A DNA stretch of 32,000 nucleotides from an uncultured bacterium (GTDB taxonomy: Bacteria > Auribacterota > JACPWU01), in assembly GCA_964640155.1 (NCBI GenBank), contig CAZXEQ010000002.1:270001-302000 (forward strand). The letters run 5' to 3'. Both the position numbers and the translations under genes were made by a program. Under the pieces are notes generated by a model. It made no database searches, was not told where the DNA came from, and was given only the letters and a program-made list of their open reading frames with translations. Positions 10,461 through 27,875 of the stretch are shown here, piece after piece (position 1 is the first letter of the stretch; each line of letters opens with the position of its first letter).

Positions 10461-10503
10461 CATAACTCGTTTGCTATAAATAAGATATGACAAGGAGAAT
10501 ACC

Positions 10504-11361
10504 ATGGCTAAGCAAGCTTTAGGAAAAGGGCTCGGAGCCTTAATTCAAAATCCTCCCAAAACAGAAACTAAAAGTGAACGAATAGAACTAGTTAAAGTTA
10601 GTTTGATTGATTTAAACCCTCAACAACCTCGTAAAGATTTTGAACCTAATGCCCTAGATGAATTAAAAGCATCTATCAAAGCCAACGGAATTCTCCAACC
10701 GCTCTTGGTTCGTAAAAGAGATGCTCGTTATGAATTGGTTGCTGGAGAAAGACGTTTAAGGGCATGCAAAGAATTAGGCCTTAGTGAAATTCCTGTTTTT
10801 ATCAAAGAAATCACGGATCAAGCTTCTCTTGAAATGGCCTTGGTCGAAAACTTACAACGCAAAGACTTAAATCCAATCGAAGAAGCTCGTGGTTATATGA
10901 GACTCATGAGAGATTATGAATTGACCCAAGATAAGATTTCAGAAAAAGTGGGAAAAAGCAGGGCGACTGTTGCCAATTGTCTTCGATTATTAGGCCTTGC
11001 TGAAGAGCTTCAAGAAATGATTGAGAAAGGCTTGCTGACTTCAGGTCACGCAAAAGGAATTCTGGGCTTAGAAAGCCCGTCTGAACAAATTAAATTAGCC
11101 AAAGAAATTATTTCAAAAGGACTTTCTGTTCGCGAAGTAGAAGAGAAGGTTCAAGAAAGAAAACTTCCGCCTCTCACGCGTATTCGAATTTTAAGACGAG
11201 ATCCTATGATTCGAGAAGTTGAAGAAAGGCTTGGAAAATCTTTAAGTACTAAAGTTGCGATTAAGCAGGGCGCCAAAAAAGGAAAGATCGAACTAGAATA
11301 TTATTCATTGGACGATTTAGAAAGATTAATTCAAATATTAGCTCCTGAAGGAAAAAGATAA
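10504..11361 (+). CDS. parB: Chromosome partitioning protein ParB/Spo0J
   Basis: The 285-aa ORF has ParB box motifs (NPQQPRK, GILQPLLVR, LVAGERRLRA) and an HTH region (QDKISEKVGKSRATVANCLRLL). A strong AGGAG RBS is present. Confidence 0.92.
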   Translation: MAKQALGKGLGALIQNPPKTETKSERIELVKVSLIDLNPQQPRKDFEPNALDELKASIKANGILQPLLVRKRDARYELVAGERRLRACKELGLSEIPVFIKEITDQASLEMALVENLQRKDLNPIEEARGYMRLMRDYELTQDKISEKVGKSRATVANCLRLLGLAEELQEMIEKGLLTSGHAKGILGLESPSEQIKLAKEIISKGLSVREVEEKVQERKLPPLTRIRILRRDPMIREVEERLGKSLSTKVAIKQGAKKGKIELEYYSLDDLERLIQILAPEGKR

Positions 11362-11381
11362 CCACCCACCTCCATAAAAAT

Positions 11382-12512
11382 ATGAATTTATATAGACTAA
11401 AATCTTTTTTTACCTCTGAATCAAGTGATTACGCACATAAGAAAAGATCGATTTTCTTCGTAGATATATTCTTTAGCTTCATTTTTTTACTTATATTTCA
11501 ATTTAGTGGGTTATCTTGTACTATTTATAATAAAATTTGCACATATCATCCCAATTTTTATATAATAAATAGCGTGTATGTGGTTGTTTTTTTATTATTA
11601 TTTCATATTATCTTCTTGCCTCTGAGTTATTATAGTCAATTTCATCTCGAACATCGTTTTAATCTTTCCAGCCAGACATTTCAAAGTTGGTTATGGGATG
11701 AAATCAAAAGTCTTTTACTCAATCTTCTTTTTTCCGTAATTATTGTGGATGTTGTTTATGTTTTTCTTAAACATTTTCCTAATACATGGTGGCTTTGGGC
11801 TACTCTTTTTTATTTTTCATTTTCAATCTTTCTTGGGAAAATTACCCCCACTTATATTCTGCCTCTTTTTTACAAAATCAAACCTGTTGAACAGTTCGAA
11901 TTGCTTGAGTCTCTAAAATCACTGGCACAAAAAGCACATGTTCAATTATTAGGAATTTATCAAATGGATATGAGCCGCAAAACTAAAAAAGCCAATGCCA
12001 TGTTTACAGGATTGGGGAGTTCTAAACGCATCATTCTAGGAGATACTTTACTCAATCAATTTTCAACAGATGAAATAAAAGTTATCCTTGCACATGAATT
12101 AGGGCATTATCGCTATCGTCATCTTTGGCAACTCATGATCGGGGGATTGGCAATGAGTTTGGTCGGATTTTTTCTTATTCATAAAACACTTTTAGCTATT
12201 TTAAGTTTTTCTAGTATTTCAGAATTGCATCATATTGCAGGCCTACCTAGTTTTCTTTTAATTCTTTTTGTGTTTTTATTATTTTTGACGCCGTTACAGA
12301 ATGGTTATTCTAGGAAGCTTGAAAAACAGGCAGATGTGTTTGCACTCGAAGAGACTCAAAACCCGCAAAGCTTTATTTCTGCTATGAAAAAACTGGCTGA
12401 GCAAAATCTTTCAGAGATGAATCCACCCCGATGGGTTGAATTTTTTCTTTATGATCATCCAAGTATTTCAAAAAGAATTCGATTGGCTGAACAATATCTG
12501 AATAAAACATGA
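11382..12512 (+). CDS. M48-family (Ste24/HtpX-like) integral membrane zinc metallopeptidase
   Basis: The 376-aa ORF has multiple N-terminal TM helices and an HEXXH motif (AHELGHYRY) between TM segments. The C-terminal HPS..KRI motif is typical of M48 peptidases. Confidence 0.8.
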   Translation: MNLYRLKSFFTSESSDYAHKKRSIFFVDIFFSFIFLLIFQFSGLSCTIYNKICTYHPNFYIINSVYVVVFLLLFHIIFLPLSYYSQFHLEHRFNLSSQTFQSWLWDEIKSLLLNLLFSVIIVDVVYVFLKHFPNTWWLWATLFYFSFSIFLGKITPTYILPLFYKIKPVEQFELLESLKSLAQKAHVQLLGIYQMDMSRKTKKANAMFTGLGSSKRIILGDTLLNQFSTDEIKVILAHELGHYRYRHLWQLMIGGLAMSLVGFFLIHKTLLAILSFSSISELHHIAGLPSFLLILFVFLLFLTPLQNGYSRKLEKQADVFALEETQNPQSFISAMKKLAEQNLSEMNPPRWVEFFLYDHPSISKRIRLAEQYLNKT

Positions 12513-12550
12513 GAAACCCACAGACATATCTCACTAGTGAATCTTCCAAC

Positions 12551-12632
12551 AAAGTGTGAAGACCATTGGAAATCGAGTGAGCACGGACCCCGATTGATTG
12601 GGGGAAGTTGGGGTTCAAGTCTCCATACACTT
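12551..12632 (+). repeat. Diverged partial copy of the 31445-31580 palindromic element, fused to a tRNA-like T-arm and acceptor stem
   Basis: Positions 12551-12607 align by hand to the reverse complement of 31512-31571. Shared blocks are CCATTGGAA(A/C)TCGAGT and ATTGGGGGAA with similar spacing. Positions 12609-12632 contain TGGGG-TTCAAGT-CTCCA (a T-arm) and TACACTT, which pairs with AAGTGTG at 12552-12558. Confidence 0.4.
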
Positions 12633-12729
12633 ATTCATCTATAACAACCGTTTGTGAACAAGGTAAAATGAGTCACAAAACTTCTTGTCTCTTGTTTCAT
12701 GCATCTTATTTCTAACTTTGCGAGGATTT

Positions 12730-13572
12730 ATGCCTAGCTGTCTTTATATCATTGCAACACCTATTGGAAATCTTGAAGATATTTCTCTGCGCGCTCTAAG
12801 AATTTTAAAAGAAGTGTCTCTTGTCGCCTGCGAGGATACACGTCAAACACAGAAACTTCTGAATCATTATCAAATTCAAAAACCTCTCATCAGTTATCAC
12901 GATTTTAACGAACGTGGCCAAGCGCCTCAACTGATTCAAAAAATCCAAGAGGGGCAAGATGTAGCTCTGGTGAGTGATGCAGGCATGCCCGGTATTTGTG
13001 ATCCAGGATTTCAAATTATTACCCTAGCCATTGAAGCCCGAATTCCTCTGACTGTTATTCCAGGCCCTTCATCTATTTTAAATGCACTGATTTTATCAGG
13101 ACTACCCACGCATCGCTTCGCCTTTGAGGGATTTTTACCTGAAAAAAAATTAGCACGAAAAAAATTACTCGCAGAACTTGAACGAGAACAGAGAACTTTA
13201 ATTTTTTTTGAGTCGGGACTTCGACTCGATCAAACTCTGAAAGACATTTTGGAGATCATGGGAAATAGAAAAACTGCGATTGCACGTGAACTCACAAAAA
13301 AGTTTGAAACTGTTTATCGAGGAACTATCCAAGAACTCATCAATCAATCTATCACGCTTAAAGGAGAGTTTGTCATTGTTCTTTCGGGAAAAACAGATTG
13401 TGAAAACTTCGAAGATTTACCAATTCTTGATCACATTGAACAAGTAATAAAAAAAATGAATCTGTCTCGTAAAGAGGCGATCAAACTCGTAGCCGAATTA
13501 AGAGGAATCTCTAAAAGAGAGGTGTATCAGAAAAGCATCTTTAAAAAAACGAACATAAGAAGTGAATTTTGA
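12730..13572 (+). CDS. rsmI: 16S rRNA (cytidine1402-2'-O)-methyltransferase RsmI
   Basis: The N-terminus LYIIATPIGNLEDIS.RAL..L......ACEDTR and the block VSDAGMPGICDPG are diagnostic of RsmI tetrapyrrole-methylase-fold enzymes. I prefer the ATG at 12730 over the TTG at 12685 used by the ORF track. Confidence 0.88.
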   Translation: MPSCLYIIATPIGNLEDISLRALRILKEVSLVACEDTRQTQKLLNHYQIQKPLISYHDFNERGQAPQLIQKIQEGQDVALVSDAGMPGICDPGFQIITLAIEARIPLTVIPGPSSILNALILSGLPTHRFAFEGFLPEKKLARKKLLAELEREQRTLIFFESGLRLDQTLKDILEIMGNRKTAIARELTKKFETVYRGTIQELINQSITLKGEFVIVLSGKTDCENFEDLPILDHIEQVIKKMNLSRKEAIKLVAELRGISKREVYQKSIFKKTNIRSEF

Positions 13573-13614: not shown

Positions 13615-16470
13615 CTATTCCATCACCGTAACATTATCTATAGAGACTGATCCCAAATTATAGTTACTCAAGAAACCTACAGAATTAGTTGTGAAAGAAT
13701 TGGTTTGTATAGGTTCATTCGTAAAGATGGCAGTGTCATCAATAAACAGATCTGTGAGAACATAGGGAGAGTTTGGACGAATAGCAATTCTCACATGATG
13801 AGGTGCACCTCGTGCTCCCACACCTGGATACCATTGATAAGTCCCTGTAAAGCCCTCATAGATCCCATCTCTCCAACCACATCGATTAGGATTTACGTCC
13901 AAGGCGATCCCTCGATAAACAAATCCACCCCAGCCATCACTAGAGTTAGAGAAAGTAACATCGTAACTGACCGTGACGTTTCTCTCTGAAATATAAAGAT
14001 CATAAGGTGAGAAGAAACTATAACCTCCTGTTCCAACAACTGTGAAGACCAATGCCCCCGACATTAAAGTCCAGTTAATATCATTGGTGTTTCCGGAGCC
14101 AATCCATGAATTTAAATTCGTGCTAAAATCATAACTGGCCGATACAAATCCTGCAGGTATGAGCTGAGTCATGTCTTTGAGAATAATACTATCGACGTTG
14201 TAAGATCCGCTAACATTATAATGAGATAAAAATCCAATCGTATTGTTAGGAAAGCTTGTAGCTTCTATAGGCTCATCAATGAAAATAGGCTTACCATCCA
14301 CATATAAATCACTTCTATAATAAGGACTTGCTGATCTTACAAAGAGAATCACATGATGAGTAACATTTTTTGTAAGACCTGAAAACCATCGATAGGAGCC
14401 AGGAAGACTTTCGTGGTTTCCATCTCTCCATCCAATTCGATTAGGATTCAGATCAAGGTTAATGCCTCTGAATCTTACTCCACCCCAGCCATCTGTATTA
14501 TTGAATAAGACATCATACTCTAGAGCAATACTGCTGTTACTTGAGATGTTAAGGTTTGTGTTATCTAAATAAGCATATCCACCTGTTCCCACAACTTGAG
14601 ATCGAAGGGCATTACCTACGATACTCCAAGTTACATTCGATGTGGCTCCTGTTGCGCCCCATCCTGATGGAAGACTGCTTGCATCAAAGTTTTCTTGATA
14701 GAGCAGACCCGGGTTAGTTCCTGGAGCTGGAGGAGTTACGACTGTAATACTTAAGGTTTCAGTAGCAGTAAGACTTCCATCACTGGCTTGTACAGTAATG
14801 CTGTAGGCTCCCACATCTGTGCTAGAGGGAACCCAGGTAAACACGCCTGTGGTTGGATTAATGCTTGCACCTGCAGGGAGCCCTGTGGCCGTGTAGGTGA
14901 TCGTGTCTCCATTGGGATCGGAGCCTTGAGCTTGAAAGGTTAAAGTTGATCCTGCAACGACTCTTTGAGCTCCTATGCCATCTAAAGTTGGGGCTAAGTT
15001 GATCCCTGCACTTCCTGAAGTTACATTCAAATTGTCATATAAATTTGCTCCCGTGAAGTAGTTTGAGATAAATCCGATTGTCTTATCAGGATATGTTGTA
15101 ATCTGTATGGGTTCATTGTTAAAAATTAAACTCCCATCAATAGACAGTCTCGATAAATCATAAGGGCTACTTCTTTGAATATTTAAAATAATATGATGAC
15201 TTGTTCCTGCACTAACTCCGCTATACCATTGATAATTTCCAGGATGCCCTTCGTAAGATCCATCTCTCCATCCGATTCTTGAGGTGTTAATATCTAGTCC
15301 CACGCCTCGATAAAATATTCCACCCCAATTCTGAGGGGTCATATCAAGAACGATCGTGATATCTTGCCCTGAGAGATCGAGTAAGGCATGCTTGAGGTAG
15401 CCATATCCTGTTGCTGAAACTGCACTGCTGATATTGCTTCTTAACGCTCCTGCAACAAAATCCCAAGCGATGTTAATGTTTCCACTTGCAATCCAGGCGC
15501 CATAGTCACTTGCATTAAAGTTATCACTGAAGGGAAGCAATAGCGGAGCTGGGTTAGGATAAATCATAAAGTTATCCCACGTGACTGTACCTGTACTGTA
15601 ATTGGATATAAAGCCTACTGTGTTACTGGAAAATGTATTCGTTTCTATAGGCTCATTGATGAATATCGGTTTACCATCAATGTAAAGATCTGTTCTGTAT
15701 GGATAGGGATTGGAACTGCTGAGTGCAACTTTTTTAACTAACATCAAAATATGATGTTTTACCCCTTTACTCACTCCTGCATACCATTGATAGGTTCCAG
15801 GAAGACTTTCATAGTTTCCATCTCTGACTCCACATCGATTCGTATTTACGTCCAAGTGTATTCCTCTAAACCAGATTCCTCCCCAACCATCATTTGTAGA
15901 GCTAAATGTAACATCGTAGCTTACTGCCAGAGTACTCATAGTACTAATGTTAAGCGAGTCTGGAATAATAAAGCTATAGCCTCCTGTCCCTATGCCCTTT
16001 GATACAAGTGCATTATTAGTAGCAGACCAGGTTATATTACTTGTAGCACCGCTCACACTCCATCCATTGTAATTTCCATCATTAAAATTATCGCTGAATA
16101 AATAAGAACTGACAGAACTCGAGCTTAAAGGATTGGTTCCCGCTATGACTTCATATAAATCATTCATACCATCATTATCAGTATCTGTATTATTGGAGTC
16201 TGTTCCATAATTCATTTCCATGATATTAGAAAGTCCATCGCTGTCGGCATCTTGTAATGCATCGTTTGTTAGGGGATCGTGATTATTTGTCAATTCATAT
16301 CCATCGGGCATTCCATCTGAATCTGTATCGGAAACAATAGGATTAGTATTATTTTGATATTCCTGCAAGTTTGAAAGTTCGTCACCATCAGCATCTCCAC
16401 CAACAGTTTGATTTAAATTCCAAAAATAATAGGCTTCCCAATAATCCCACAAACCGTCACTATCCGTATC
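13615..16470 (-). repeat. Shared C-terminal cassette, copy in the 2006-aa protein (about aa 1056-2006): TSP3 repeats, R1, R2, Ig-like, R3, R4
   Basis: This copy is collinear, domain by domain, with 19729-22325. Approximate sub-boundaries are R1 15550-16134, R2 15020-15549, Ig 14745-15005, R3 14185-14700 and R4 13618-14150. Confidence 0.8.
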
Positions 16471-19400
16471 TACCTTTGTTCTTGACCAGGTCGTGCCCAT
16501 GAGATTTCCATTTACATCTCGTGGTTCAATACTAAGTGTTTTTGTTGTTCCATTGAAAGTGCATTTTAAATATCCCCAAGCTGTGTTATTACGTTCCATT
16601 GAAAAGGTAGCTGCGGCTCCCGAAAATGTATATAAACTTGCGCCTCCATTGCCGGTCACATAATATTTAACTCCGGATGCATTATTTTGAGCTCCTTTGA
16701 GGATTGGATAAAATTGTTCATAATGGTGATTATGGCCTTGAAAAACAGCATCTACATGATAGCTTTCGAAGATAGGGACAAGTTCTGCTCTGACATCGGG
16801 ATCGTATCCATGCGATGAAGTCGTTGAAGAATAGGCAGGTTCATGCAGATAAACAATCTTGAAAGGTTGACTCGTCGCAGCCAAGTCTTGTTCAAGCCAA
16901 GTTTTTTGCGTATTCCATAAGGATGTGCCTATGTAACTTTTATTAGCATCGAGGGCAACAAAATGAATGTCCCCATAATCAAATGAATAAAAAAGTTCTT
17001 CCGCACTGGCACCCATTCCATTTGGATAAATGTAATAAGCATCTTTGGAGGGTTGGCCATTGTATGTATCGTGATCATGATTTCCAAAAGTTGGATAATA
17101 AAAAACTGAATGAAATACATCTTTATATACGTCAAAAACATAGCTTTGAATTTGTTGGGCTGTCCCACTGGAATACGCATTATCGCCCACGGTGAGCACA
17201 AAATTTACAAGGGCTGTTTTAATTTGGTTTTTAACAGCCGTTTCATTAGAGGTTCCTGATCCCCAGTCTCCAATCACTGCAAACGAGAAATTTTGCGCAG
17301 TGTCAGGAGCAACATGCGTTTTAAATTGATAAACAGTATCCGAGGGATTTACTTTTAGAATCTGATTATTTGTTTTAATTCGATAATAATATAAAGTTCC
17401 TGCAGTTAGCCCTGTGATATTGACTTGATGCGTTGTACCGCTGGAACCTGTGGCGATGAGGCCCAAATCTGTAGTAGGACCGTATTCAACAGTACTGTCC
17501 CCAAAAATATCTGTTTGCCAAATAATAGAGACTTCGGTTGTTTTCCCCATTTGAAGAAAAGGCCCCCGTGTGAGCGTTGTAAGAGAACCTGTGAGATAAG
17601 TTACAGGATAGCTATTGTACTTCATTACTTGTTTGGTGGAGTCATCCAGAATATAAATCGAAGCTGTTGTAGAAGGATAGGCCGCAACAACTGCAATTCC
17701 CTCCTGCTCCGTTCCAGGCAAAATGTATTCTTTGAGAACTGTACCGTCAGGATACATTTCCAATAGCCGATTGGCTGAATCGAAAATTGCATAGAGTTTT
17801 TCTGTCTGGGCATCAAAATAAAGTCCCGCAATATCCGTTATGCCCGGAACAATCGTAAGGGTATCCACATAGGATATTTGGCCATTTTGTGAGAGGTTCA
17901 CATCGAAAATGTAGATCTTCCCATCAGCCTGTAATCCTGTATAGAAGAGGCCCCCCGAACTGCTGTTAGGGTAAGGGTGATAACTGTTGGGAACAAATGT
18001 TAACGCTTCTAGTCCTGAATTATCAGGCCCCGTCATCCAAGGGGTTAGTGACCAAGAACGTCCGGTGAGCGTTCCTGTCGAAATATCAAACTCACGAATG
18101 GAATCTGGATGTTCCACACCGAGATAAATATAGTTAGAATTTGCGTTTGCAATTGTAATTCCCTCAAGATCCCCGCCCGGGCTCCAAGTAATTATTTGAG
18201 AGCCATCCGCATTCATTTGACTCACTTGCCCTTCATCACTGACAATAAAAAGTTTTTGAAGACGCGTATGCCAAACTGCATCGCTCGGCTCGTACCCTGA
18301 AGGAAGATTCGAACCAATATTTATACCGCTTCCTGCCGGCCAAGGCTGAACTCCTCCCGGCGCCTCGGCATAGATATTATTACTAAAGCCTGTCGGCCAG
18401 TTGTTCGCTGAAAAATCACCATCGCCAAAAACTTTTCCATATCCCTGTTGAATAGATGCCTTGGAAGAATAACTTGCATCAATGACTGCATCTGTTCTAT
18501 AAGGCTGATAAAAAGTATTGCCCGTGGCCGTAACATCACATCCCGGGGAGAAATAAAGCAATGTTCCGCCATTATTTGAAACTCGATTGAAGAAAAAATT
18601 ATTCTGTAAAATGATGCGACTGAAGGAAGAACTTCCATAGGGACCCAAGGTAGCGGTATACCCATAAACCTGTGAATCTCCGATATTATTATTTGCAATG
18701 GTGTAAGGACCCGCCCCTTCTAAAACGAGGTTTGTCAATCCATTATAAGTGATGAAGCTGTATTCCAAAACTGCATTAACACCCCAAAGTTTAACGCCAT
18801 CTCCACAGACATTTCTCACCTGAGCTCTTTGAACAAGAACATTGTTAGCTTTTAAATCTATCCCGTCTCCTTGACTTCCCATAATCTGAACACGCTGTAT
18901 CGTAATACGATTGCCTCTTTCAACAGCAATCCCATCTGCAGCCGTGTCATTGCCAGTCTCGGTCATGCTTAAAATAACGTCTCGAATCGTGACATCTTCA
19001 ACAGCACCGTCTCCTAAATCAATCCCTGCCTGACTGTAACCCGTTGCGGTCACATTTTGAATTAAAATATTACTGGCGATGAGAGAAGGGTTTGTGGGCA
19101 TCAAGACAATACCCGAAGGCCCATCAGAAGGACGTGGTTCATTCGCTTGAAATTTAATCACCTCTCCACCGCCAACGACAATCAAATTACTTAGCGTTAT
19201 ATTGTCATTATTAATCCAGCCCACAATCGCGTAGGTCTCGAAGTTTTGTATCGTCAGATTTTGGACAGTGATGTTGTCAAAAGAACCCATATCTGTTTCT
19301 CCGTCAAAGCTGATTCCATATCCTGTACTTCCTGCAAACGCCCCGTTTAAAATAACCTGCTCATTTTGATAGCCCGACAACGTAACGCCTGAACATTTAA

Positions 19401-19635
19401 ATTGAACATTTTCTTGATAGGTTCCTACTCTTGCATAAACGGTATCTCCACTTTGAATTCTGTCGAGAGCGAACTGGATGGTTTGCCAGGGATTAGAAAT
19501 AGTACCAGAAGAATTATCGCTCCCTGAAGGACTAACATAATAGAAGGCGGCTTCAGAACAGGCGCTGAACATTATAAGAAAAAGTATGACGAGGAAGGGG
19601 GCCTGCCATTTTAAAAGGCCTCTTACAAAATTCAT
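13615..19635 (-). CDS. Giant secreted, probably lipid-anchored, multidomain protein. Domains: right-handed beta-helix, SdiA-regulated/phytase-like beta-propeller, purple acid phosphatase-type metallophosphoesterase, thrombospondin type-3 Ca repeats and the shared C-terminal jelly-roll/Ig cassette
   Basis: The 2006-aa ORF has a signal peptide with a lipobox-like MFSAC and a DUF1565/beta-helix start (YYVSPSGSDNSSGT..NPW.TIQFAL). The propeller-like region contains DLEGITI and SGLEALTF. PAP motifs GDWG, GDNAY, GNHDH, YLHEP and GHNHHYE are present, as are DxDxDG repeats (DTDSDGMPDGYE, DADSDGLSN, DTDNDGMNDLYE). Four LamG-like repeats and one Ig-like domain follow. Confidence 0.85.
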   Translation of the reverse strand: MNFVRGLLKWQAPFLVILFLIMFSACSEAAFYYVSPSGSDNSSGTISNPWQTIQFALDRIQSGDTVYARVGTYQENVQFKCSGVTLSGYQNEQVILNGAFAGSTGYGISFDGETDMGSFDNITVQNLTIQNFETYAIVGWINNDNITLSNLIVVGGGEVIKFQANEPRPSDGPSGIVLMPTNPSLIASNILIQNVTATGYSQAGIDLGDGAVEDVTIRDVILSMTETGNDTAADGIAVERGNRITIQRVQIMGSQGDGIDLKANNVLVQRAQVRNVCGDGVKLWGVNAVLEYSFITYNGLTNLVLEGAGPYTIANNNIGDSQVYGYTATLGPYGSSSFSRIILQNNFFFNRVSNNGGTLLYFSPGCDVTATGNTFYQPYRTDAVIDASYSSKASIQQGYGKVFGDGDFSANNWPTGFSNNIYAEAPGGVQPWPAGSGINIGSNLPSGYEPSDAVWHTRLQKLFIVSDEGQVSQMNADGSQIITWSPGGDLEGITIANANSNYIYLGVEHPDSIREFDISTGTLTGRSWSLTPWMTGPDNSGLEALTFVPNSYHPYPNSSSGGLFYTGLQADGKIYIFDVNLSQNGQISYVDTLTIVPGITDIAGLYFDAQTEKLYAIFDSANRLLEMYPDGTVLKEYILPGTEQEGIAVVAAYPSTTASIYILDDSTKQVMKYNSYPVTYLTGSLTTLTRGPFLQMGKTTEVSIIWQTDIFGDSTVEYGPTTDLGLIATGSSGTTHQVNITGLTAGTLYYYRIKTNNQILKVNPSDTVYQFKTHVAPDTAQNFSFAVIGDWGSGTSNETAVKNQIKTALVNFVLTVGDNAYSSGTAQQIQSYVFDVYKDVFHSVFYYPTFGNHDHDTYNGQPSKDAYYIYPNGMGASAEELFYSFDYGDIHFVALDANKSYIGTSLWNTQKTWLEQDLAATSQPFKIVYLHEPAYSSTTSSHGYDPDVRAELVPIFESYHVDAVFQGHNHHYEQFYPILKGAQNNASGVKYYVTGNGGASLYTFSGAAATFSMERNNTAWGYLKCTFNGTTKTLSIEPRDVNGNLMGTTWSRTKVDTDSDGLWDYWEAYYFWNLNQTVGGDADGDELSNLQEYQNNTNPIVSDTDSDGMPDGYELTNNHDPLTNDALQDADSDGLSNIMEMNYGTDSNNTDTDNDGMNDLYEVIAGTNPLSSSSVSSYLFSDNFNDGNYNGWSVSGATSNITWSATNNALVSKGIGTGGYSFIIPDSLNISTMSTLAVSYDVTFSSTNDGWGGIWFRGIHLDVNTNRCGVRDGNYESLPGTYQWYAGVSKGVKHHILMLVKKVALSSSNPYPYRTDLYIDGKPIFINEPIETNTFSSNTVGFISNYSTGTVTWDNFMIYPNPAPLLLPFSDNFNASDYGAWIASGNINIAWDFVAGALRSNISSAVSATGYGYLKHALLDLSGQDITIVLDMTPQNWGGIFYRGVGLDINTSRIGWRDGSYEGHPGNYQWYSGVSAGTSHHIILNIQRSSPYDLSRLSIDGSLIFNNEPIQITTYPDKTIGFISNYFTGANLYDNLNVTSGSAGINLAPTLDGIGAQRVVAGSTLTFQAQGSDPNGDTITYTATGLPAGASINPTTGVFTWVPSSTDVGAYSITVQASDGSLTATETLSITVVTPPAPGTNPGLLYQENFDASSLPSGWGATGATSNVTWSIVGNALRSQVVGTGGYAYLDNTNLNISSNSSIALEYDVLFNNTDGWGGVRFRGINLDLNPNRIGWRDGNHESLPGSYRWFSGLTKNVTHHVILFVRSASPYYRSDLYVDGKPIFIDEPIEATSFPNNTIGFLSHYNVSGSYNVDSIILKDMTQLIPAGFVSASYDFSTNLNSWIGSGNTNDINWTLMSGALVFTVVGTGGYSFFSPYDLYISERNVTVSYDVTFSNSSDGWGGFVYRGIALDVNPNRCGWRDGIYEGFTGTYQWYPGVGARGAPHHVRIAIRPNSPYVLTDLFIDDTAIFTNEPIQTNSFTTNSVGFLSNYNLGSVSIDNVTVME

Positions 19636-19728
19636 GTTCGTTCCTACCCTTCTGCCCCCAAACTTGCCTTTCCTTCTAATATCGACTCCTTATATACAAA
19701 TAATAAAAGACTATCTCTTACGATGCTT

Positions 19729-22325
19729 CTATTCTGTTACTACAACATTATCTACAGAAACAGAACCTGAATAATATCCACTTCCAAAACCTATGAAATT
19801 GCTCGGGAATGTGCCACATTCAACAACTTCATTTTCAAAAATAGCATTCCCATTAATGGTCAAGTCCATGAGAACATAAGGGGAAGCGGGTTTAAATTTG
19901 ATTTTAACATGATGACTACTTCCTTTAGTAAGTGTGCTGGGATACCATTTATACGTCCCAGAAAAACCTTCATATACGCCATCTCTTGCTCCATATCGAT
20001 TCGGACAAATGTCAATTCCAATTCCTCGATAAAGAAATTGCCCCCAACCATCCGAATTGCTGCTGAATGTGACATCATAATCGACCGTGATTGTTTTTCC
20101 TGCAATATTTAACCCGGCCGACTGTATAAAACAGTAACCTCCACTTCCTATCACTGTTGCAGTTAATGCTCCCGAAGCAATAGACCAATTCACATTGTTC
20201 ACGGCTCCGCTTGTGGTCCAATTATTGAGGTTGGAGCTAAAATCATAACTGGCCAGTACCGTACCAGGAGTAGCCGGTTGTGTCGTATCTTTCGCAAGAA
20301 TACCATCAATGCTATAAGAGTTCCCGAGATAATAATGAGACAAAAATCCAAAGTTACTAACAGAAAGGCCTGATGCTTCAATGGGTTCATTGATAAAAAC
20401 AGCTTTCCCATCCACATGAAGATCACTTAAATAGTAGGGACTTGCTTTACGAATAGAAATTATGACATGATGCAAAACATTTTTACTAATTCCTGTGAAC
20501 CATTTATAACTCCCAGAATAACCTTCATAAGACCCATCTCTCCATCCACATCGGTTAGGATTAATATCCAGGCCAACCATTTTTCCAGAACTTCCAACTC
20601 TAAAGCCTCCCCAGCCATCTGTATTGTTGAATATAACATCATATTCTATAGAAAAACTATCCAAACTCGACAAGTTCACACTTGTATTATCTAAGAAAGA
20701 ATATCCTCCTGAGCCAATTACTTTACATTGTAAAGAGCCCCCATTCACTGTCCAATCTACATTACCAGTAACTCCAGTTTCCACCCATCCACTCAATGAC
20801 GCCGTATCAAAATTTTCTTGAAAAACAGCGCCGGGGGTACTTGCCGTTTGCGTCGCAGAAATAACAATGGTTTCGCTATCTGTAAGACTTCCATCGCTAA
20901 CTTGAACAGTCACATTATATGTGCCAGCATCTGTCTCTTTTGTAGCCCAATTGAAAGCCCCTGTACTTGGATTGAGCGTGGCACCAACGGGAAGACCTGT
21001 TGCAGTGTAAACTAAATTATCTCCGTTTAAATCAATCGCTCGTACTTGAAATGAAAGGGGTTGCCCCACTTTAACACTTTTGTCACCAATACTATTCATC
21101 AAAGGAGCCAAATTGGTTCCTACACTCACAGCTGTTACACTTGTATTGTCCCACAAAACATTTCCTGTATAAAGATTGGATGTAAATCCAACTGTTTTAT
21201 CTGAATAACTTGCTATTTGTATGGGTTCATTTTGAAAAATCAGTGTATTGTCTACATACAGTTTAGATAAATCATAAGAATTTGTTTTTTCTATCATCAA
21301 TATCACATGATGTGAAGCTCCAGAACTCATTCCGCTGAAAGGCTGATAACTACTATCTTTCCAGCCAATGGCTGTTGTATTAAGCTCTAAAGAAACCCCG
21401 CGATAAATAAATGCCCCCGAACTTTGAGGAGTGATATCAAATTCAACAATCACATCTTTTCCACTCACATCCAATAATGCGTGTTTGAAACTTCCAATAC
21501 CTATTCCACTGTCTTGGGCTTGTATAGTGGACCTCAATGATCCAGAAGCAAAATCCCAGATCACTTTGCTATTTCCACCTGAAATCCACAAACCATAATC
21601 ACTTGAATTAAAGTTGTCACTGAAGGGTAAGAGTAACGATGTAGAAATAGAATAAACAGTAAAATTGTCGCATGTCACTGTTCCATTCTGAGAATAATTG
21701 GAGGCAAATCCTATTGTGTTTGGGGTCAAATTGGCCACTTCTATCGATTCATTGAGAAAAATAGGTTTGCTATCAATGTACAAATCACTTGTATAATAAG
21801 GAGATCCTTTCTTTATAAAGATCAAGACACGATGTTTAACCCCCTTACTCATACCTGCATACCATTTGTAAGTCCCCGAAAGACCTTCATAAGGGCCATC
21901 TCTCCATCCACTGCGATAGGCATTGACATCCAGATGTTTATTGATAACTACACCTCCCCAACCATCACTGTCTGAACTAAAGGTTACATCGTAACTTATT
22001 ACAAAGTTATTTACAGAAGCCAGATTTAAAGATGTTGTTATGAAACCATATCCTCCACTTCCGACAGCACGCGAAACAAGTGCATTTGTTGTCGCAGACC
22101 ATACTATATTGTTCGTCGCTCCACTGGCACTCCAACCGTTCGTGTTTCCATCATTAAAATCATCTTTAAATAAATAAGCACTGACAGAACTTGCATTTAA
22201 AGGATTGGTGCCTGCAATGCTTTCATATAAATCATTCATGCCATCTCCATCGCTATCCGTAACATTTGGGTTGGTTCCTGATTTTAATTCACTCCCATCA
22301 CTGAGACCATCTCCATCCGAATCTA
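19729..22325 (-). repeat. Shared C-terminal cassette, copy in the 2599-aa protein (about aa 1736-2599)
   Basis: The order matches: TSP3 (DSDGDGLSDGSE..DSDGDGMNDLYE), R1, R2, Ig-like, R3, R4. Both proteins end ..SVS(I/V)DNV(T/V)V(M/T)E. Approximate sub-boundaries are R1 21641-22182, R2 21125-21640, Ig 20850-21120, R3 20290-20845 and R4 19732-20280. Confidence 0.8.
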
Positions 22326-25300
22326 ATGAATATGAAGAAATCACATTCGATATAAGAGAGACATTTCCCATATTATCTGTTGTTTTAATTGCAAAATAAT
22401 ATTCAGTCGATGAAAAATTTAACCCAGATATGCTCAAGGATTCTGATCCTCCAGCGGCCTTCGGCTGAGGAGAATTGCTGATAACAGTTGCCGATGAAAA
22501 ATTGGAAGATGTAATGGGAGAAGCGGAATAACGCATATTATAAGAACTCGCTGTTCCTATTGAACCATCATCTCCGGGTGCCGTCCAAGCAAGTGTTATT
22601 GAAGATGAAGAAAGACTGGTCATTCTTAAATCAGAGATGGTTGCAGGAGCTGTTGCATCTTGAGTTACCACTAACTCGACAGGAATTTGAACACTGGGGT
22701 TGGCTCCATCATTGCTTTTGATATTCAGAGTTGCTTTATAAGAACCTGATGAAATATTCACGCCTGTATATTGCACACTGATATTTGCAGATGAAGACGC
22801 CACTACAGTGCCAGTAACAGGTTGCACAGAAAACCAGGCAAAATCTGTTTTGTTATCTAGAACCTGAATATCATCAATATAAAAACCTTCATAAGCATTG
22901 AGATATGCATCTACTGTATCAAAAGTAAAACGTAAAATAACTTTCTTACCTTTATAAGCTGTCAAATCTAAAGAGCCGGAAGAAGTCCAAGCAGATTCAG
23001 AAACATTGGCTCCATCCTTATACCAAAGCAATGCCCAAGAAGAACCTGCATTGCTTGAAATCTCCAGATAAGTTTTGTCTCCTGGAACAGAAGGGTAATA
23101 CTCCACCGTTCTCCAAAATTTGAAAGACAGCTGAGGCGTTGTCCCTGAAGTTAAATCAATTTCTGGAGAAGTCAATGTCCCTTTATTAATGGCTCCTGTC
23201 TCATAATTTCCCGTGGATTCACTTCCATAATAGAAAGCATGCGTTGCACTTGAATAGCGACGTGTTGAAGAATGCCATAAGCCCGTTGCGGTCCAACCAG
23301 AAGCATTTTCACAATCATTGTTATAAAGTGCCACCGCCTCACCTGTAGTAGCCGAAGCAACATTGGAAAGGCCAGAAACATTTCCAACATCATCCGTCAC
23401 TTTCATTGCAAAATAATAAACTGTTTTTTGAGTCAATCCCGTAATGGTCAAAGATTCTGCGCTACCAGATGACTTAGGAGCTGGAACACTGGATACCAAG
23501 GTCGCCGAGCTAAAATTGGATGAATTAATTGCACTGGTTGAATAGCGAATCTCATAAGATGTCGCCGTACCTGTATTTCCATCATCTCCCGTAGCTGTCC
23601 ATTTAAGTTTCACGGTTGAGAAAGAAAGGGTTTCTGATGTTAAAGTGCTGACCGCAGAAGGAGGCGTCGTCTCAGCATTCTGCATCGCCTTGTGTACATT
23701 GAGTCTACCACCTGAAATTGTTTTGCCAGATAAACTCGAAACTTTATCCGTTCCACTTAAAATTTGACTTTTGACTTTTGCGTAAGTCCAAGAAGGATTG
23801 GCAGCCCATATAAGCGCACAAGCCCCCGCTACATGTGGTGTTGCCATCGATGTTCCACTCAAAGACCCATATGTGTTGGAAGGAAGCGTACTGTAAATAT
23901 TTACACCTGGTGCGCCCAAATGAACAGTCGTGGCACCAAAACAAGAGAAAGAAGCCAATAAATCTTTATTGTCCGTAGCTGCTACAGAAATGACATTTGC
24001 AACTTGATAATTTGATGGATAGTGAGGGGTTTGATCATTATTCGTTCCATTGTTTCCTGCGGCCGCGACAAATAAAGCTCCTTTGGAATTGGCTACGACA
24101 ATTGAATCATAAAGAGCTTGCGAATAACCTCCTCCTCCCCAACTATTGCTCAAAATTTTAGCCCCTTTATTAGCAGCATAAAGCACCGCAGAAACTGCAT
24201 CTGAAGTAGATCCAGAACCACTTGCACTTAAAAATTTAAGAGGCATGATTTTCACTGTCCAGCTCACACCTGCAACACCCACTCCATTGTTCCCAACTGC
24301 ACCAATCGTGCCTGCACAATGGGTTCCATGTTTGTTATCATCATAGGGATCTTTATCTTCATTCACAAAATCCCAACCACGAATATCATCGACATAACCA
24401 TTTCCATCATCATCAATGCCATTGTTGGCGATTTCTCCAGAATTGGTCCACATATTGGCAGCTAAATCAGGATGATTGTAATCCACTCCCGTATCAATAA
24501 CCGCCACTACAATATTACTGCTTCCCTTAGTTATATCCCAAGCTTCAGGCGCATCAATATCCGCATCGGATGTTCCTCCGGTTTGGCCTGTATTGTGCAA
24601 CCCATAAAGTGAAGAGAAACTGGGATCGTTGGGAGTCGCATTAACACTCACAATATAATTGGGTTCTGCATATTCCACCAAACCACTGGCAACATAAGAT
24701 TTTGCAAGACGCGCTGCATCCATATTGGAAGCCGTCTCAATCAGGTGAACACCTATTTCAGCATGGGTCTTCACCACACGAGCATCTAGTCCTTGCGCCA
24801 AATCTCGAAGCGCCCCAGCACTGACACCTTCTTTAAATTTCACAAGAATTTGGCCAGGTAAATAAGGAGCCACTTTGGTGGATGTATTAATTTTAGCGGG
24901 GTCTGGAGCACCAGTAGAACTGGAGCTAACAGAAGCACCTTCAGAAATTTCAAAAGAAAGATCGGAATCCCCGGTATTCTGAATCGTGAGTGTTTGAGAT
25001 GTTGTGGCCCCAACATCTAAGGCAACCTTGGAAAGACTTGAAGGAGTTACATTCATTTTTGGGCCGACTTTTGTTTTTGCACTGATCACATTTGAAAGAC
25101 CGGAAACATTATAAAGATCATCTTTTGCTTTCATTGCAAAATAGTACGTAACGCCTGTGGAAAGGCCTGTCACTTCAAAAGTTTCTGCACTCCCTGAAGT
25201 GGTTGGGGCCAAGAGCCCTGAAACCTGTGTCGCTGAAGAAAAATTAGAAGCGGTGATGGTACTTGTAGAATATCTTAAATCATAAATTGCGGCCTTACCC

Positions 25301-27528
25301 ACAGCCTCATCGTCTCCCGGTGCAGTCCAAGTTAATGTCACCGATGAAAGCCCTGTGGTACTCGCTGCTAAATTAATAATATCTGAAGGAGGTGTAACAT
25401 CGGCAGAACCTTCTGCTAAAATTTGAATATCATCGACAAACCATCCTTCAAAAGTATTATAATAGTCATCTAACGTATCGAAATAGAACCTTATTAAAAC
25501 GGTCTCCCCATCATAGTCTGAAAGATCAATTGTTACTTTTTCCCATTTTGCATTGGTAGAATAAGATTTATACACAGTTGTCCAAGTACTTCCTCCATTT
25601 TGTGAAACTTGCACAGAAGCTTCATCATAAGGAGCATAGTTTTCTGTTGTAAGATAATGATTAAAAATCAGGGTTGAAGAAGTTGCATTCGTTAAGAAAA
25701 TTGGGGAAGAAATCAGTGAACCATTATTTTCATAACCTGTATCGTAATTGCTTGTCGTTTCACTCCCATAGTAGAAGGATTGGGTCGCACTCAGCGAGCG
25801 CTTTGAAGACAAATGCCAAAGGGTATTTCCTCCACCCCCATCTGTTCCCGATAATGACCACATGCTTTGTCCATTTTCAAAATTTTCGCTAAAAATAGCT
25901 GTGCCCTGTGTTGTCTTGCTCGATACAACATTTGAAAGAGCTGACGCATTTCCCACATTGTCTCGCACTTTCAAAGCAAAATAATAAGTTGTATTGGCAG
26001 CTAATCCTTTTACCTTAACCGTCTCTGTTTGGCCTGAAGCTTTAGGAGCCGAAAGTCCTGTCACTTGTGTTGCAGAACTCCATGTAGATTCTGTAATAGC
26101 ACTGGTCGCATATCTTAAATCATAGGAACTGGCTGTGCCTGTTGTTCCATCGTCTCCCGTCGCTGTCCAAGATAAAACTACACTAAAAAAAGAACTGCTT
26201 TGAACAGCAACAGTACTTATAGCCCCTGGAGCTGTTGAATCATTATCCATAAAATTATAAATATTAAGCCTTCCACCTGTCACTGTTTTCCCCGACAAAG
26301 CAGAAGCAGGATCTACTGTGGAAAGAATTCTATCTCTGATTTGAGTGTAAGTTGAATTAGGCAATTGAGACCACATTAAAGCGGCAGCACCTGACACATG
26401 AGGACAAGCCATGGAAGTTCCGCTTAACGAACCATACTGATTGCCAGGTTTGGTGCTGTAAATATTCACGCCAGGTGCGCCTAAATCGACAGTGGTCGCT
26501 CCATAATTAGAAAAAGAAGCCAATTGATCATTCGCATCTGTCGCAGCCACTGAAATCACATTCGCCACATCATAAGCTGCGGGATACATGGGACTCACAT
26601 CTGCATCGGCTGCACTGTTACCCGCAGCTGCAATAAAAAGAGCACCTGCATTTCGATTGACCACCATGGCATCATACATCGCTTGAGAAAATCCGCCGCC
26701 GCCCCAGCTATTACTGGAAATTTTAGCACCCATTTGAGTTGCATAGTTCAAGCAAGAAATCGCATCTGAAATGTATCCGGAACCGCTAGAACTCAAAAAT
26801 TTTAGCGCCATAATTTTGGCTCTCCAAACCACACCCGAAACTCCAATCCCATTGTTGCCCACACCTGCAATGGTTCCTGCACAATGTGTTCCATGATAAT
26901 GATCATCCATAGGATCGTTGTCATCATTGGCAAAATCCCATCCATGAATGTCATCGATGTACCCATTTCCATCATCATCCATGCCATTGCCAGCAATTTC
27001 ACCTGGATTGGTCCACATATTGGCCGCCAAATCTGGATGCGTGTAGTCTACTCCTGTGTCAATCACTGCAATGACAAAATTTGGATCACCGGTTTGAACA
27101 TTCCATGCTTCAGGAGCATCTATATCAGCGTCTGATGTGCCTCCTGTTTGCCCAGTATTATTCAATCCATAAAGACTTGAAAACGAAGGATCATTAGGCG
27201 TTTGACTGATTTGAACGATAAAGTTGGGCTCTACATAACGGACTTTGGATGATTTTTTGAGAAGAGTTAAAGCTTCTTCAACAGACATCCCTTCAGGAAG
27301 TTTATATTGATGGACATTATTAATATTAAATTTCTCTATCTGTTCGGCATTGATGGATCGACGAAGTTGACGAATCTCGGAGCTGGACGTTCCAGGTTGA
27401 TAACGAACCAAAATTTCATCTTTAGCATATGGCAAGGATTCTTCAGCTGACATTAAAGAGGATTGTCCTAAGAAAATAAAAGCAGCAACAAAAACTCCTA
27501 AAAAGATTGAATGGGCGGCCTTTCTCAT
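19729..27528 (-). CDS. Giant secreted tandem double subtilase. Twice over it carries an I9 propeptide, S8 peptidase, FN3, MAM-like, FN3 and Ig-like domain, followed by thrombospondin type-3 Ca repeats and the shared C-terminal jelly-roll/Ig cassette
   Basis: The 2599-aa ORF has a signal peptide (..FLGQSSLMSA/EES) and two complete catalytic sets. Set 1 is DTGVDYTHPD, HGTHCAGTIAG, SNSWGG and GTSMACPHVSG (Ser about aa 372). Set 2 is DTGVDYNHPD, HGTHCAGTIGA, SNSWGG and GTSMATPHVAG (Ser about aa 1227). Each set is preceded by an I9-like propeptide. AAGGAG lies 8 nt upstream of the ATG. Confidence 0.9.
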   Translation of the reverse strand: MRKAAHSIFLGVFVAAFIFLGQSSLMSAEESLPYAKDEILVRYQPGTSSSEIRQLRRSINAEQIEKFNINNVHQYKLPEGMSVEEALTLLKKSSKVRYVEPNFIVQISQTPNDPSFSSLYGLNNTGQTGGTSDADIDAPEAWNVQTGDPNFVIAVIDTGVDYTHPDLAANMWTNPGEIAGNGMDDDGNGYIDDIHGWDFANDDNDPMDDHYHGTHCAGTIAGVGNNGIGVSGVVWRAKIMALKFLSSSGSGYISDAISCLNYATQMGAKISSNSWGGGGFSQAMYDAMVVNRNAGALFIAAAGNSAADADVSPMYPAAYDVANVISVAATDANDQLASFSNYGATTVDLGAPGVNIYSTKPGNQYGSLSGTSMACPHVSGAAALMWSQLPNSTYTQIRDRILSTVDPASALSGKTVTGGRLNIYNFMDNDSTAPGAISTVAVQSSSFFSVVLSWTATGDDGTTGTASSYDLRYATSAITESTWSSATQVTGLSAPKASGQTETVKVKGLAANTTYYFALKVRDNVGNASALSNVVSSKTTQGTAIFSENFENGQSMWSLSGTDGGGGNTLWHLSSKRSLSATQSFYYGSETTSNYDTGYENNGSLISSPIFLTNATSSTLIFNHYLTTENYAPYDEASVQVSQNGGSTWTTVYKSYSTNAKWEKVTIDLSDYDGETVLIRFYFDTLDDYYNTFEGWFVDDIQILAEGSADVTPPSDIINLAASTTGLSSVTLTWTAPGDDEAVGKAAIYDLRYSTSTITASNFSSATQVSGLLAPTTSGSAETFEVTGLSTGVTYYFAMKAKDDLYNVSGLSNVISAKTKVGPKMNVTPSSLSKVALDVGATTSQTLTIQNTGDSDLSFEISEGASVSSSSTGAPDPAKINTSTKVAPYLPGQILVKFKEGVSAGALRDLAQGLDARVVKTHAEIGVHLIETASNMDAARLAKSYVASGLVEYAEPNYIVSVNATPNDPSFSSLYGLHNTGQTGGTSDADIDAPEAWDITKGSSNIVVAVIDTGVDYNHPDLAANMWTNSGEIANNGIDDDGNGYVDDIRGWDFVNEDKDPYDDNKHGTHCAGTIGAVGNNGVGVAGVSWTVKIMPLKFLSASGSGSTSDAVSAVLYAANKGAKILSNSWGGGGYSQALYDSIVVANSKGALFVAAAGNNGTNNDQTPHYPSNYQVANVISVAATDNKDLLASFSCFGATTVHLGAPGVNIYSTLPSNTYGSLSGTSMATPHVAGACALIWAANPSWTYAKVKSQILSGTDKVSSLSGKTISGGRLNVHKAMQNAETTPPSAVSTLTSETLSFSTVKLKWTATGDDGNTGTATSYEIRYSTSAINSSNFSSATLVSSVPAPKSSGSAESLTITGLTQKTVYYFAMKVTDDVGNVSGLSNVASATTGEAVALYNNDCENASGWTATGLWHSSTRRYSSATHAFYYGSESTGNYETGAINKGTLTSPEIDLTSGTTPQLSFKFWRTVEYYPSVPGDKTYLEISSNAGSSWALLWYKDGANVSESAWTSSGSLDLTAYKGKKVILRFTFDTVDAYLNAYEGFYIDDIQVLDNKTDFAWFSVQPVTGTVVASSSANISVQYTGVNISSGSYKATLNIKSNDGANPSVQIPVELVVTQDATAPATISDLRMTSLSSSSITLAWTAPGDDGSIGTASSYNMRYSASPITSSNFSSATVISNSPQPKAAGGSESLSISGLNFSSTEYYFAIKTTDNMGNVSLISNVISSYSLDSDGDGLSDGSELKSGTNPNVTDSDGDGMNDLYESIAGTNPLNASSVSAYLFKDDFNDGNTNGWSASGATNNIVWSATTNALVSRAVGSGGYGFITTSLNLASVNNFVISYDVTFSSDSDGWGGVVINKHLDVNAYRSGWRDGPYEGLSGTYKWYAGMSKGVKHRVLIFIKKGSPYYTSDLYIDSKPIFLNESIEVANLTPNTIGFASNYSQNGTVTCDNFTVYSISTSLLLPFSDNFNSSDYGLWISGGNSKVIWDFASGSLRSTIQAQDSGIGIGSFKHALLDVSGKDVIVEFDITPQSSGAFIYRGVSLELNTTAIGWKDSSYQPFSGMSSGASHHVILMIEKTNSYDLSKLYVDNTLIFQNEPIQIASYSDKTVGFTSNLYTGNVLWDNTSVTAVSVGTNLAPLMNSIGDKSVKVGQPLSFQVRAIDLNGDNLVYTATGLPVGATLNPSTGAFNWATKETDAGTYNVTVQVSDGSLTDSETIVISATQTASTPGAVFQENFDTASLSGWVETGVTGNVDWTVNGGSLQCKVIGSGGYSFLDNTSVNLSSLDSFSIEYDVIFNNTDGWGGFRVGSSGKMVGLDINPNRCGWRDGSYEGYSGSYKWFTGISKNVLHHVIISIRKASPYYLSDLHVDGKAVFINEPIEASGLSVSNFGFLSHYYLGNSYSIDGILAKDTTQPATPGTVLASYDFSSNLNNWTTSGAVNNVNWSIASGALTATVIGSGGYCFIQSAGLNIAGKTITVDYDVTFSSNSDGWGQFLYRGIGIDICPNRYGARDGVYEGFSGTYKWYPSTLTKGSSHHVKIKFKPASPYVLMDLTINGNAIFENEVVECGTFPSNFIGFGSGYYSGSVSVDNVVVTE
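22306..24870 (-). repeat. Intragenic tandem duplication, unit 2 (about aa 887-1741)
   Basis: The domain order matches unit 1. The protease cores are clearly similar by hand alignment, for example TPNDPSFSSLYGL.NTGQTGGTSDADIDAPEAW, which is identical in both. Boundaries are approximate. Confidence 0.75.
24871..27435 (-). repeat. Intragenic tandem duplication, unit 1 (about aa 32-886): I9-S8-FN3-MAM-like-FN3-Ig-like
   Basis: The unit is collinear with unit 2 at a constant offset of 855 aa. This was checked at the PY of the propeptides (aa 33-34 vs 888-889) and at the catalytic Ser (372 vs 1227). Boundaries are approximate. Confidence 0.75.
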
Positions 27529-27862: not shown

Positions 27863-27875
27863 GAAACCTCATGTC

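Follow-up and report, generated by a model that had tools for sequence, protein, structure and literature searches.

Two adjacent genes with a common C-terminal cassette

In a 32,000-nucleotide stretch of DNA from an uncultured bacterium of the Auribacterota (contig CAZXEQ010000002.1, positions 270,001 to 302,000; this whole stretch is called the window below), two large genes lie side by side on the minus strand: gene A, encoding a protein of 2006 residues, and gene B, encoding one of 2599 residues (Table 1). An earlier note, made from the letters alone, had claimed that the ends of these two proteins match domain by domain whilst their N-terminal parts (heads) are unrelated. A single collinear BLASTP alignment of residues 1129–2006 of A with residues 1736–2599 of B bears out the first part of this claim together with the coordinates that it gave: 494 of 883 aligned positions are identical (56%, E = 0), which corresponds to the window stretches 13618–16251 (A) and 19732–22323 (B). 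Both tails exhibit the same order of modules, namely a pair of TSP3 repeats, R1, R2, an immunoglobulin (Ig)-like domain of the He_PIG type, R3 and R4, with R standing for a unit of some 178 residues. In each tail Pfam identifies TSP3_bac repeats at the start and a single, central He_PIG Ig domain; when all six reading frames of the window are searched with a hidden Markov model (HMM) built from the eight R copies, exactly 8 matches appear, four in each protein. Each domain is also closest to its positional counterpart, as had been noticed before: comparison of the R copies reveals identities of 56–63% for same-position pairs and of 30–51% for all other pairs. The two proteins come to a stop within the last strand of R4, A with IDNVTVME and B with VDNVVVTE, which agrees with the shared ending DNV(T/V)V(M/T)E that had been reported. 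In A, two further TSP3 motifs precede the homologous pair and extend to position 16470, where the earlier note had placed the start of the tail; only the last two motifs of A (16111–16251) are homologous to the pair in B. We refer to the shared region as the cassette.

The heads are indeed unrelated. That of A (residues 1–1055, with its domain combination at 16486–19635) consists of a right-handed, pectate-lyase-like beta-helix, a propeller for which the SdiA-regulated-type Pfam match is weak, and a metallophosphoesterase domain of the purple-acid-phosphatase type. The same domain types are found in a different order, and without the cassette, in another Auribacterota protein (P0113, from Candidatus Theseobacter exili), suggesting that the heads have themselves been shuffled. 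The head of B (residues 1–1735) comprises two complete subtilase units, each with the layout Fervidolysin prodomain, Peptidase_S8, fn3, InhA-like MAM and fn3, and both units retain the DTG, HGTH and GTSM catalytic motifs.

Table 1. Positions of genes, domains and regulatory features in the window.
Feature	Position	Strand	Evidence and remarks
Gene A	13615-19635	-	2006 aa; signal peptide with lipobox-like FSAC, beta-helix, propeller, metallophosphoesterase, cassette (open reading frame (ORF) list, translation, Pfam)
Head of A, residues 1-1055	16471-19635	-	Pfam Beta_helix, SdiA-regulated, Pur_ac_phosph_N, Metallophos
TSP3 calcium-binding repeats of A	16111-16470	-	D.D.DG..[DN]..E motifs at residues 1056, 1103, 1129, 1151 (Pfam TSP3_bac)
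R1 of A	15559-16107	-	R HMM 268.6 bits; AlphaFold pLDDT 91.7; Foldseek lectin/glucanase folds
R2 of A	15016-15540	-	R HMM 255.6 bits
He_PIG / Big_9 Ig-like domain of A	14740-14991	-	Pfam PF05345, E 8e-17
R3 of A	14173-14706	-	R HMM 272.3 bits
R4 of A, last domain	13618-14148	-	R HMM 270.9 bits; translation, ends DNVTVME
Gene B	19729-27528	-	2599 aa; Sec-type signal peptide, two tandem subtilase units, cassette (ORF list)
Head of B, residues 1-1735	22324-27528	-	two complete subtilase units; Pfam Peptidase_S8 E 2.5e-121, two stretches
Internal tandem duplication in head of B	22369-27441	-	units 49% identical over ~840 aa (self-comparison)
TSP3 pair of B	22183-22323	-	motifs at residues 1736, 1758; Pfam TSP3_bac
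R1 of B	21649-22179	-	R HMM 254.6 bits
R2 of B	21130-21633	-	R HMM 207.0 bits
He_PIG Ig-like domain of B	20857-21105	-	Pfam PF05345, E 1e-14
R3 of B	20287-20826	-	R HMM 257.5 bits
R4 of B, last domain	19732-20262	-	R HMM 261.1 bits; translation, ends DNVVVTE
Gap between B and A	19636-19728	-	93 nt
Small ORF, signal peptide, free-standing subtilase prodomain-like fold	27557-27862	-	101 aa; Pfam Fervidolysin_NPro-like E 2.7e-5; also called in Logan contig
Terminator-like hairpin	27885-27913	-	13-bp stem + T8 run; in both minimum free energy and centroid folds
c-di-GMP-I-type riboswitch aptamer, GGC variant	27944-28023	-	Rfam RF03167, 61.3 bits (gathering score 59), E 2.5e-12, model 1-80 of 80
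Promoter-like site TTGACC-N18-TATGAT	28089-28118	-	consensus scan 10/12; pattern match only; upstream of aptamer

Age and integrity of the duplication

As A and B are direct neighbours with the same orientation, the shared tail could in principle be an artefact, stemming either from a chimeric assembly or from a very recent duplication of the whole gene with a mis-joined head. This is contradicted by the divergence of the tails, which exhibit a nucleotide identity of 63.5% and a number of synonymous substitutions per site (dS) above 1 (1–2) and are hence too different for an assembler to confuse. It is also contradicted by a contig from a separate assembly (Logan, SRR8857867; 8771 bp), which corresponds to positions 19300–28070 of the window with 0 mismatches and crosses both the head-tail junction of B and the junction between B and A; the exact product of B is on record in this assembly. 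P0001, one of the proteins retrieved in our searches, represents A and is identical to it from residue 22. The earlier note had named two circumstances under which its claim would fall, namely a lack of other carriers together with a recent whole-gene duplication, and a chimeric assembly; what we found instead are further carriers in other samples and metagenome-assembled genomes (MAGs), saturated dS values and agreement between two assemblies, and we regard an artefactual origin as having next to no probability.

Given the saturation of dS, the duplication of the tail is old. The ratio of non-synonymous to synonymous substitution rates (dN/dS) lies between 0.13 and 0.29 in each of the R domains, values that are rough due to this saturation and that refer to the tails only, the heads being non-homologous. 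Thus, every R copy is maintained under purifying selection.

Fold and family status of the R domain

An AlphaFold model of R1 was generated from the alignment of the eight copies: the predicted structure is all-beta with 14 strands and was obtained with high confidence (pLDDT 91.7, pTM 0.87). Comparison of this model to the PDB using Foldseek afforded 174 matches at E ≤ 0.001, and the 50 matches listed are all jelly rolls of lectins, carbohydrate-binding modules (CBMs), glucanases or lyases, each with a probability of 1.00 and with TMq values of up to 0.67. Among the matches listed are the CBM40 lectin domains of sialidases, the L-type lectins Emp46p and ERGIC-53, DUF1080-type proteins (4qhz, 3imm), the Hc-N domains of BoNT/NTNH, alginate lyases of families PL7 and PL36, and COMP (3fby, E 1.9e-6, TMq 0.62). 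A further Foldseek search with a model of the TSP3 repeats plus R1 adds CBM66 and, weakly, the K1 domain of the gingipain Kgp (4itc, E 4e-5). The model thus confidently places R in the superfamily with the concanavalin A (ConA)-like lectin/glucanase jelly-roll fold.

At the level of sequence, R stands apart. With a Pfam threshold as permissive as E ≤ 10, the four R copies of A match no family of the ConA-like clan, and R4 alone produced two matches, both at chance level; no match was found in NCBIfam, and comparison of the R profile to the sequences of the PDB gave chance-level matches only. The most similar families that we are aware of in terms of fold class and length are DUF1080/3-keto-disaccharide hydrolase (PF06439) and Laminin_G_3 (PF13385) from the giant proteins of the Planctomycetes-Verrucomicrobia-Chlamydiae (PVC) group. 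These also have a motif pattern similar to that of R, an N-terminal aromatic F..G..W...W, R having in addition a C-terminal DN..V strand, and are found in the lineages that carry R, in some cases together with it in one protein (P0036, P0011, P0003, P0015); their Pfam models nevertheless fail to detect R even at E ≤ 10. Membership of R in either family was considered and rejected, as hhalign comparison to single sequences of each returned probabilities of only 1–10%. From this lack of a match to Pfam, NCBIfam, PDB sequences, DUF1080 and LamG_3, we conclude that R is a separate, new family within a known fold class and not a member of one of the named Pfam families of this clan.

The fold also raises the question of catalysis: R domains could be small ConA-fold polysaccharide lyases or glycanases comparable to PL7, PL36 or GH16, which would provide A and B with four extra active sites each. 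Two alginate lyases, Aly36B and vAL-1 (E 8e-8 to 2e-6), are among the top Foldseek matches, along with "putative glycosyl hydrolases" of the DUF1080 type, and the 71 domains of the wider R family have a conserved set of polar residues (R82, R92, D97, H119, E153, D179 and Y171), several of which are located in beta-strands. However, the matches to lectins and CBMs are as good as those to enzymes; R is clearly shorter (~178 residues compared to ~240 for the lyases), with TM-scores of 0.42–0.60 and identities of 11–16%. Furthermore, four tandem copies with an Ig spacer are the layout usual for binding modules and not for catalytic domains, and the tail also follows proteases and a phosphatase. 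Finally, R2 of B, the most divergent copy, carries a deletion of seven residues and SGA in place of WGG in the alignment, yet it is under constraint. A catalytic role of the R domains is hence improbable.

Spread of the cassette over heads and lineages

When 1.84 billion representative proteins were scanned in full with the R profile using HMMER, 65 of them proved to contain R, 25 of these at E ≤ 1e-30: R is thus a very rare family. A full scan was needed for this, since a word-indexed protein search with the alignment of the eight copies returned no match. A search with the tail as a single sequence retrieved three cassette proteins, whilst its other matches cover 7–23% of the query, which is consistent with the He_PIG Ig domain alone. 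In a genome scan one distant locus was found, in a Verrucomicrobia MAG, the protein of which has one internal R copy, and two metagenome scans gave matches to the TSP3 repeats only and no new R locus. Wherever organism names are attached to R proteins they belong to the PVC group: P0005 and P0007 both originate from one MAG named "Chlamydiota bacterium", and proteins with a single R are named as Kiritimatiellia, Verrucomicrobia and Lentisphaerae. Going by these names, the window would belong to a PVC bacterium, probably one related to the Chlamydiota.

The HMM search that the earlier note had suggested revealed further heads with the cassette, bringing the C-terminal array of TSP3 pair, R1, R2, Ig, R3 and R4 to at least six different heads. 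In addition to the purple-acid-phosphatase-type head of A (P0001) and the double subtilase of B, these are a GH14-like glycosidase with a TIM barrel plus fn3 (P0002/P0066), a repetitive N-terminal region with LamG_3 and Calx-beta (P0003), an M10 matrixin with fn3 (P0007, truncated by the end of its contig) and a glucoamylase-like domain with CBM30 and fn3 (P0012, truncated); P0004, P0005, P0006 and P0008 are fragments. All heads are extracellular-type enzymes or adhesin-like proteins. P0002 is encoded on the same 501,885-bp NCBI contig as MnmG, MnmE, YidC and B of the window, so that this genome contains at least three carriers of the cassette.

In a neighbour-joining tree of the 71 R domains, the R1, R2, R3 and R4 copies of A, B, P0002, P0066 and P0003 each group by position, which indicates that the four-domain array is older than its spread onto different heads. 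The TSP3 pair can be considered part of the unit, since 25 residues separate its second motif from R1 in 6 of the 7 carriers that cover this region. The upstream boundary of the cassette varies: B, P0002, P0007 and P0012 have an fn3 domain ahead of the TSP3 pair, A and P0003 do not. Together, the number of heads, the position-wise tree and the fixed spacing between TSP3 and R1 show that the array has spread as a unit onto different heads and support its reading as a common tail, as the earlier note had supposed.

In most of the other family members, single R copies are internal. They are found inside giant PVC proteins beside GH42 and GH14 domains, CBM60, DUF1080, PKD, BNR and RHS repeats, and R occurs within carbohydrate-active enzymes in P0002 (GH14-like), P0012 (glucoamylase-like) as well as P0011 and P0016 (GH42), compared to a protease and a phosphatase in the carriers of the window. 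Such a position of a single R beside glycosidase and CBM domains is that of accessory binding modules.

Two further observations concern members of this set. P0002 and P0066 (402–3874 of locus L003 and 6174–9643 of locus L004) are in two samples directly preceded by three conserved genes, for a GT2 glycosyltransferase, a B12-binding radical SAM enzyme and a second GT2 glycosyltransferase, which may link them to the synthesis of a surface glycan. In seven very large proteins (P0009, P0040, P0043, P0054, P0056, P0059 and P0064; 4400–5500 residues) the R profile matched with its N-terminal half alone (~18–95), in 8–32 stretches each; these seem to contain either a shorter repeat related to the N-terminal half of R or a different beta-sandwich repeat.

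The distribution of R also bears on the possibility that the cassette acts as a secretion or sorting signal that is read by an export or attachment machine, in the manner of the C-terminal domain (CTD) of type IX secretion system (T9SS) substrates, PEP-CTERM, LPXTG or dockerin modules. The full cassette is always C-terminal and common to many cargoes, and the window encodes a protein F of a type II secretion system (T2SS; 448–1710); T2SS substrates with C-terminal tags are not known. However, no model of a sorting domain in Pfam or NCBIfam matched A or B: signals of the T9SS CTD, PEP-CTERM or LPXTG type are absent from both tails, which agrees with what had been noted before, as are those of the MYXO-CTERM type, and both sequences break off within the final strand of R4 (VME and VTE) and exhibit no hydrophobic or charged tail. 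The size of the cassette, ~880 residues, exceeds that of known tags about tenfold, the earlier note having already called it far larger, and the internal position of R in most other family members argues against a signal as well. Neither a cohesin, sortase or exosortase gene nor a T9SS gene was found in the window, and Dockerin and Cohesin matches are absent from A, B and the ORFs of the window in Pfam, the calcium repeats matching TSP3_bac. We therefore consider a sorting function to be very improbable.

A riboswitch upstream of the two genes

Upstream of B lies a small ORF for a protein of 101 residues with a signal peptide, which is preceded by an aptamer of the c-di-GMP-I riboswitch type and a terminator-like hairpin (Table 1). 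The hairpin follows the aptamer at a distance of 30 nt and is separated by 22 nt from the start codon (ATG, position 27862), with a ribosome-binding site between the hairpin and the ORF; it is probably the expression platform of the riboswitch. By eye, the aptamer stretch GGAUAGG could pair with CCUAUUC of the terminator as a possible anti-terminator, which we do not put forward as a claim. The small ORF ends 28 nt upstream of B and is followed by B and then, after 93 nt, by A, with no terminator predicted between these two genes. The small ORF, as the first gene, B and A would thus probably form one operon under the control of the riboswitch. The encoded prodomain-like protein could serve as a separate chaperone or inhibitor for B. 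The frames of A and B coincide, as the gap corresponds to exactly 31 codons: this is probably a coincidence and is compatible with tight co-transcription.

With an aptamer that exceeds the Rfam gathering score and a hairpin similar to an intrinsic terminator ahead of genes for secreted or surface proteins, the arrangement resembles that of c-di-GMP-I (GEMM-I) regulons, with the difference that the best model for the aptamer of the window is the GGC variant. Since this riboswitch class is reported to control genes for motility and biofilms (PMC7266159), such control would fit a role of A and B at a surface or in a matrix.

Proposed function of the cassette

We propose that the cassette is a multivalent, lectin-like tail that binds a glycan or a surface, and we assign a probability of roughly 60% to this reading, in which we infer both the binding and its target. 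The lectin/CBM-type fold of R and the presence of single R copies next to CBMs and glycosidases fit a role in binding or anchoring. A binding role is also indicated by the polar residues that all eight window copies have in common (D66, D97, H119, E153, D179, Y107, Y136 and S169), many of which are conserved across the 71 domains of the family, and by the low dN/dS of each R domain. From the three roles that the earlier note had offered for the tail (anchoring, sorting or target binding), the first and the last are hence consistent with our results, whilst sorting is not, given that no signal model matched and that R is internal in many proteins.

In the mechanism that we envisage, the riboswitch would respond to a cyclic dinucleotide as its putative ligand and set the expression of the protease-phosphatase operon, switching it either on or off. 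The products would first be exported via Sec; N-terminal lipidation is possible in A and P0007, the signal peptides of which contain a lipobox-like FSAC and a canonical LASC, respectively, compared to ordinary signal peptides in B and P0002, and with the N-terminus anchored by such a lipid the tail would remain available for binding. Within the tail, the two calcium-binding TSP3 repeats would act as a linker, after which come four domains with a predicted ConA fold, R1 to R4, with the He_PIG Ig-like domain as a probable spacer between R2 and R3. A repeating glycan would be the ligand of the four R domains and could belong to the cell's own envelope or matrix, to a particle or to the surface of a host or prey. 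In a small lineage of the PVC group (named relatives: Chlamydiota MAGs), this tail has been attached as a single block to secreted hydrolases that differ in their chemistry, including serine and metallo-proteases, a phosphatase and glycosidases, and would keep these different enzymes at one place in the way that CBM arrays and the adhesin domains of gingipains do.

Several points weigh against this proposal. No tie between R and any CBM or lectin family was found at the level of sequence in Pfam, PDB sequences or hhalign comparisons. The best structural matches include enzymes (alginate lyases) and TM-scores are moderate (0.5–0.67), so that the fold alone cannot separate binding from catalysis. 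As to the regulatory part, we found no report of the ligand of the GGC variant RF03167 in the accessible literature, no riboswitch is present upstream of P0002/P0066, the other carrier with known flanks, and the case for co-transcription of the small ORF, B and A consists only of short gaps and the lack of a predicted terminator.

A different role, in which the cassette is a module for protein-protein assembly or a stalk, would dispense with the glycan altogether: the tail would bind a protein receptor, a scaffold or other cassettes, and calcium would stiffen the TSP3 linker. ConA-like domains are also able to bind proteins, and BoNT/NTNH Hc-N and the C-terminal domains of thrombospondin/COMP are among the structural matches; He_PIG Ig domains and TSP3 repeats are common in adhesins, and NCBIfam reports weak matches of the TSP3 region to CglD and MtsD, which are annotated as gliding and cell-cohesion proteins. 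On the other hand, no candidate partner is encoded nearby, R adjoins glycosidase and CBM domains in the wider family, and thrombospondin-like packing of the TSP3 repeats is unsupported by the model. Overall, an assembly or stalk function appears unlikely when set beside the glycan- or surface-binding tail proposed here.

The resemblance to thrombospondin is real at the level of parts: as in the thrombospondin/COMP signature domain, TSP3-type DxDxDG repeats (PF18884 in A and B) directly precede a jelly roll with a lectin fold, with the difference that the cassette has only two repeats at a fixed distance of 25 residues. Bacterial TSP3 repeats are widespread linkers. For wrap-around packing of the repeats onto R1, the defining trait of the signature domain, no support was obtained: the repeat part of the model has a pLDDT of 46–69, below 70 throughout, and the match to thrombospondin-2 (1yo8) did not improve with this model, being only the 45th with a root-mean-square deviation of 10.7 Å; such packing is therefore used as an analogy only.

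Parallels in terms of design are CBM40, present in the sialidases of Vibrio cholerae and in pneumococcal NanA, and CBM66 from Bacillus subtilis SacC. Like R, these are ConA-like beta-sandwiches of ~160–200 residues that are appended to hydrolases, often in several copies that provide avidity. The cassette differs from them in that R resembles none of the CBM and lectin families in sequence, in its fixed order of five modules and in its presence on proteases and a phosphatase as well, and binding is putative in its case. In Porphyromonas gingivalis, the gingipains and HagA have one multi-domain jelly-roll adhesin region that is common to several proteases and an adhesin in a single genome. The cassette differs from these haemagglutinin-adhesin ("cleaved adhesin") regions as well: there is no sequence relation, the TM-score to Kgp K1 is low (0.35/0.48), the lineage is different and gingipains carry a T9SS CTD, which the cassette does not. 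The sharing of binding modules among exoenzymes is a well-known principle, and the cassette extends this known design and is not a new one.

A more specific proposal, which we regard as doubtful, sees in the cassette a lineage-specific "address label" used by environmental bacteria related to the Chlamydiota. Here, one glycan-recognising tail would direct a whole set of enzymes (proteases, a phosphatase and glycosidases) to a common surface, that of a host cell or a matrix, and a cyclic-dinucleotide riboswitch would switch some members of this set: such a system would be comparable to cellulosomes or gingipains, albeit built from an undescribed domain family. To our knowledge, all known members of the Chlamydiota live inside host cells.

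The rarity of R and its absence from Pfam, NCBIfam and PDB sequences make this family of interest in itself, and the cassette provides a clean natural case of domain shuffling: an array of five modules has been passed on in one piece and now follows at least six different kinds of secreted enzyme. Should its ligand be a glycan of a host or a matrix, the tail would indicate what these uncultured bacteria adhere to and degrade, and the recombinant cassette would represent a ready-made probe for this surface. The riboswitch, in turn, would tie a protease/phosphatase pair to cyclic-dinucleotide signalling, which is little studied in this lineage.

Neighbouring genes

The neighbouring genes, at positions 448–13572 of the window, are all encoded on the plus strand, opposite to A and B, and comprise those for the T2SS protein F mentioned above, YidC, a VWA protein, MnmE, MnmG, ParA, ParB, an M48 peptidase and RsmI. 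These are housekeeping genes that are typical of the region near a replication origin.

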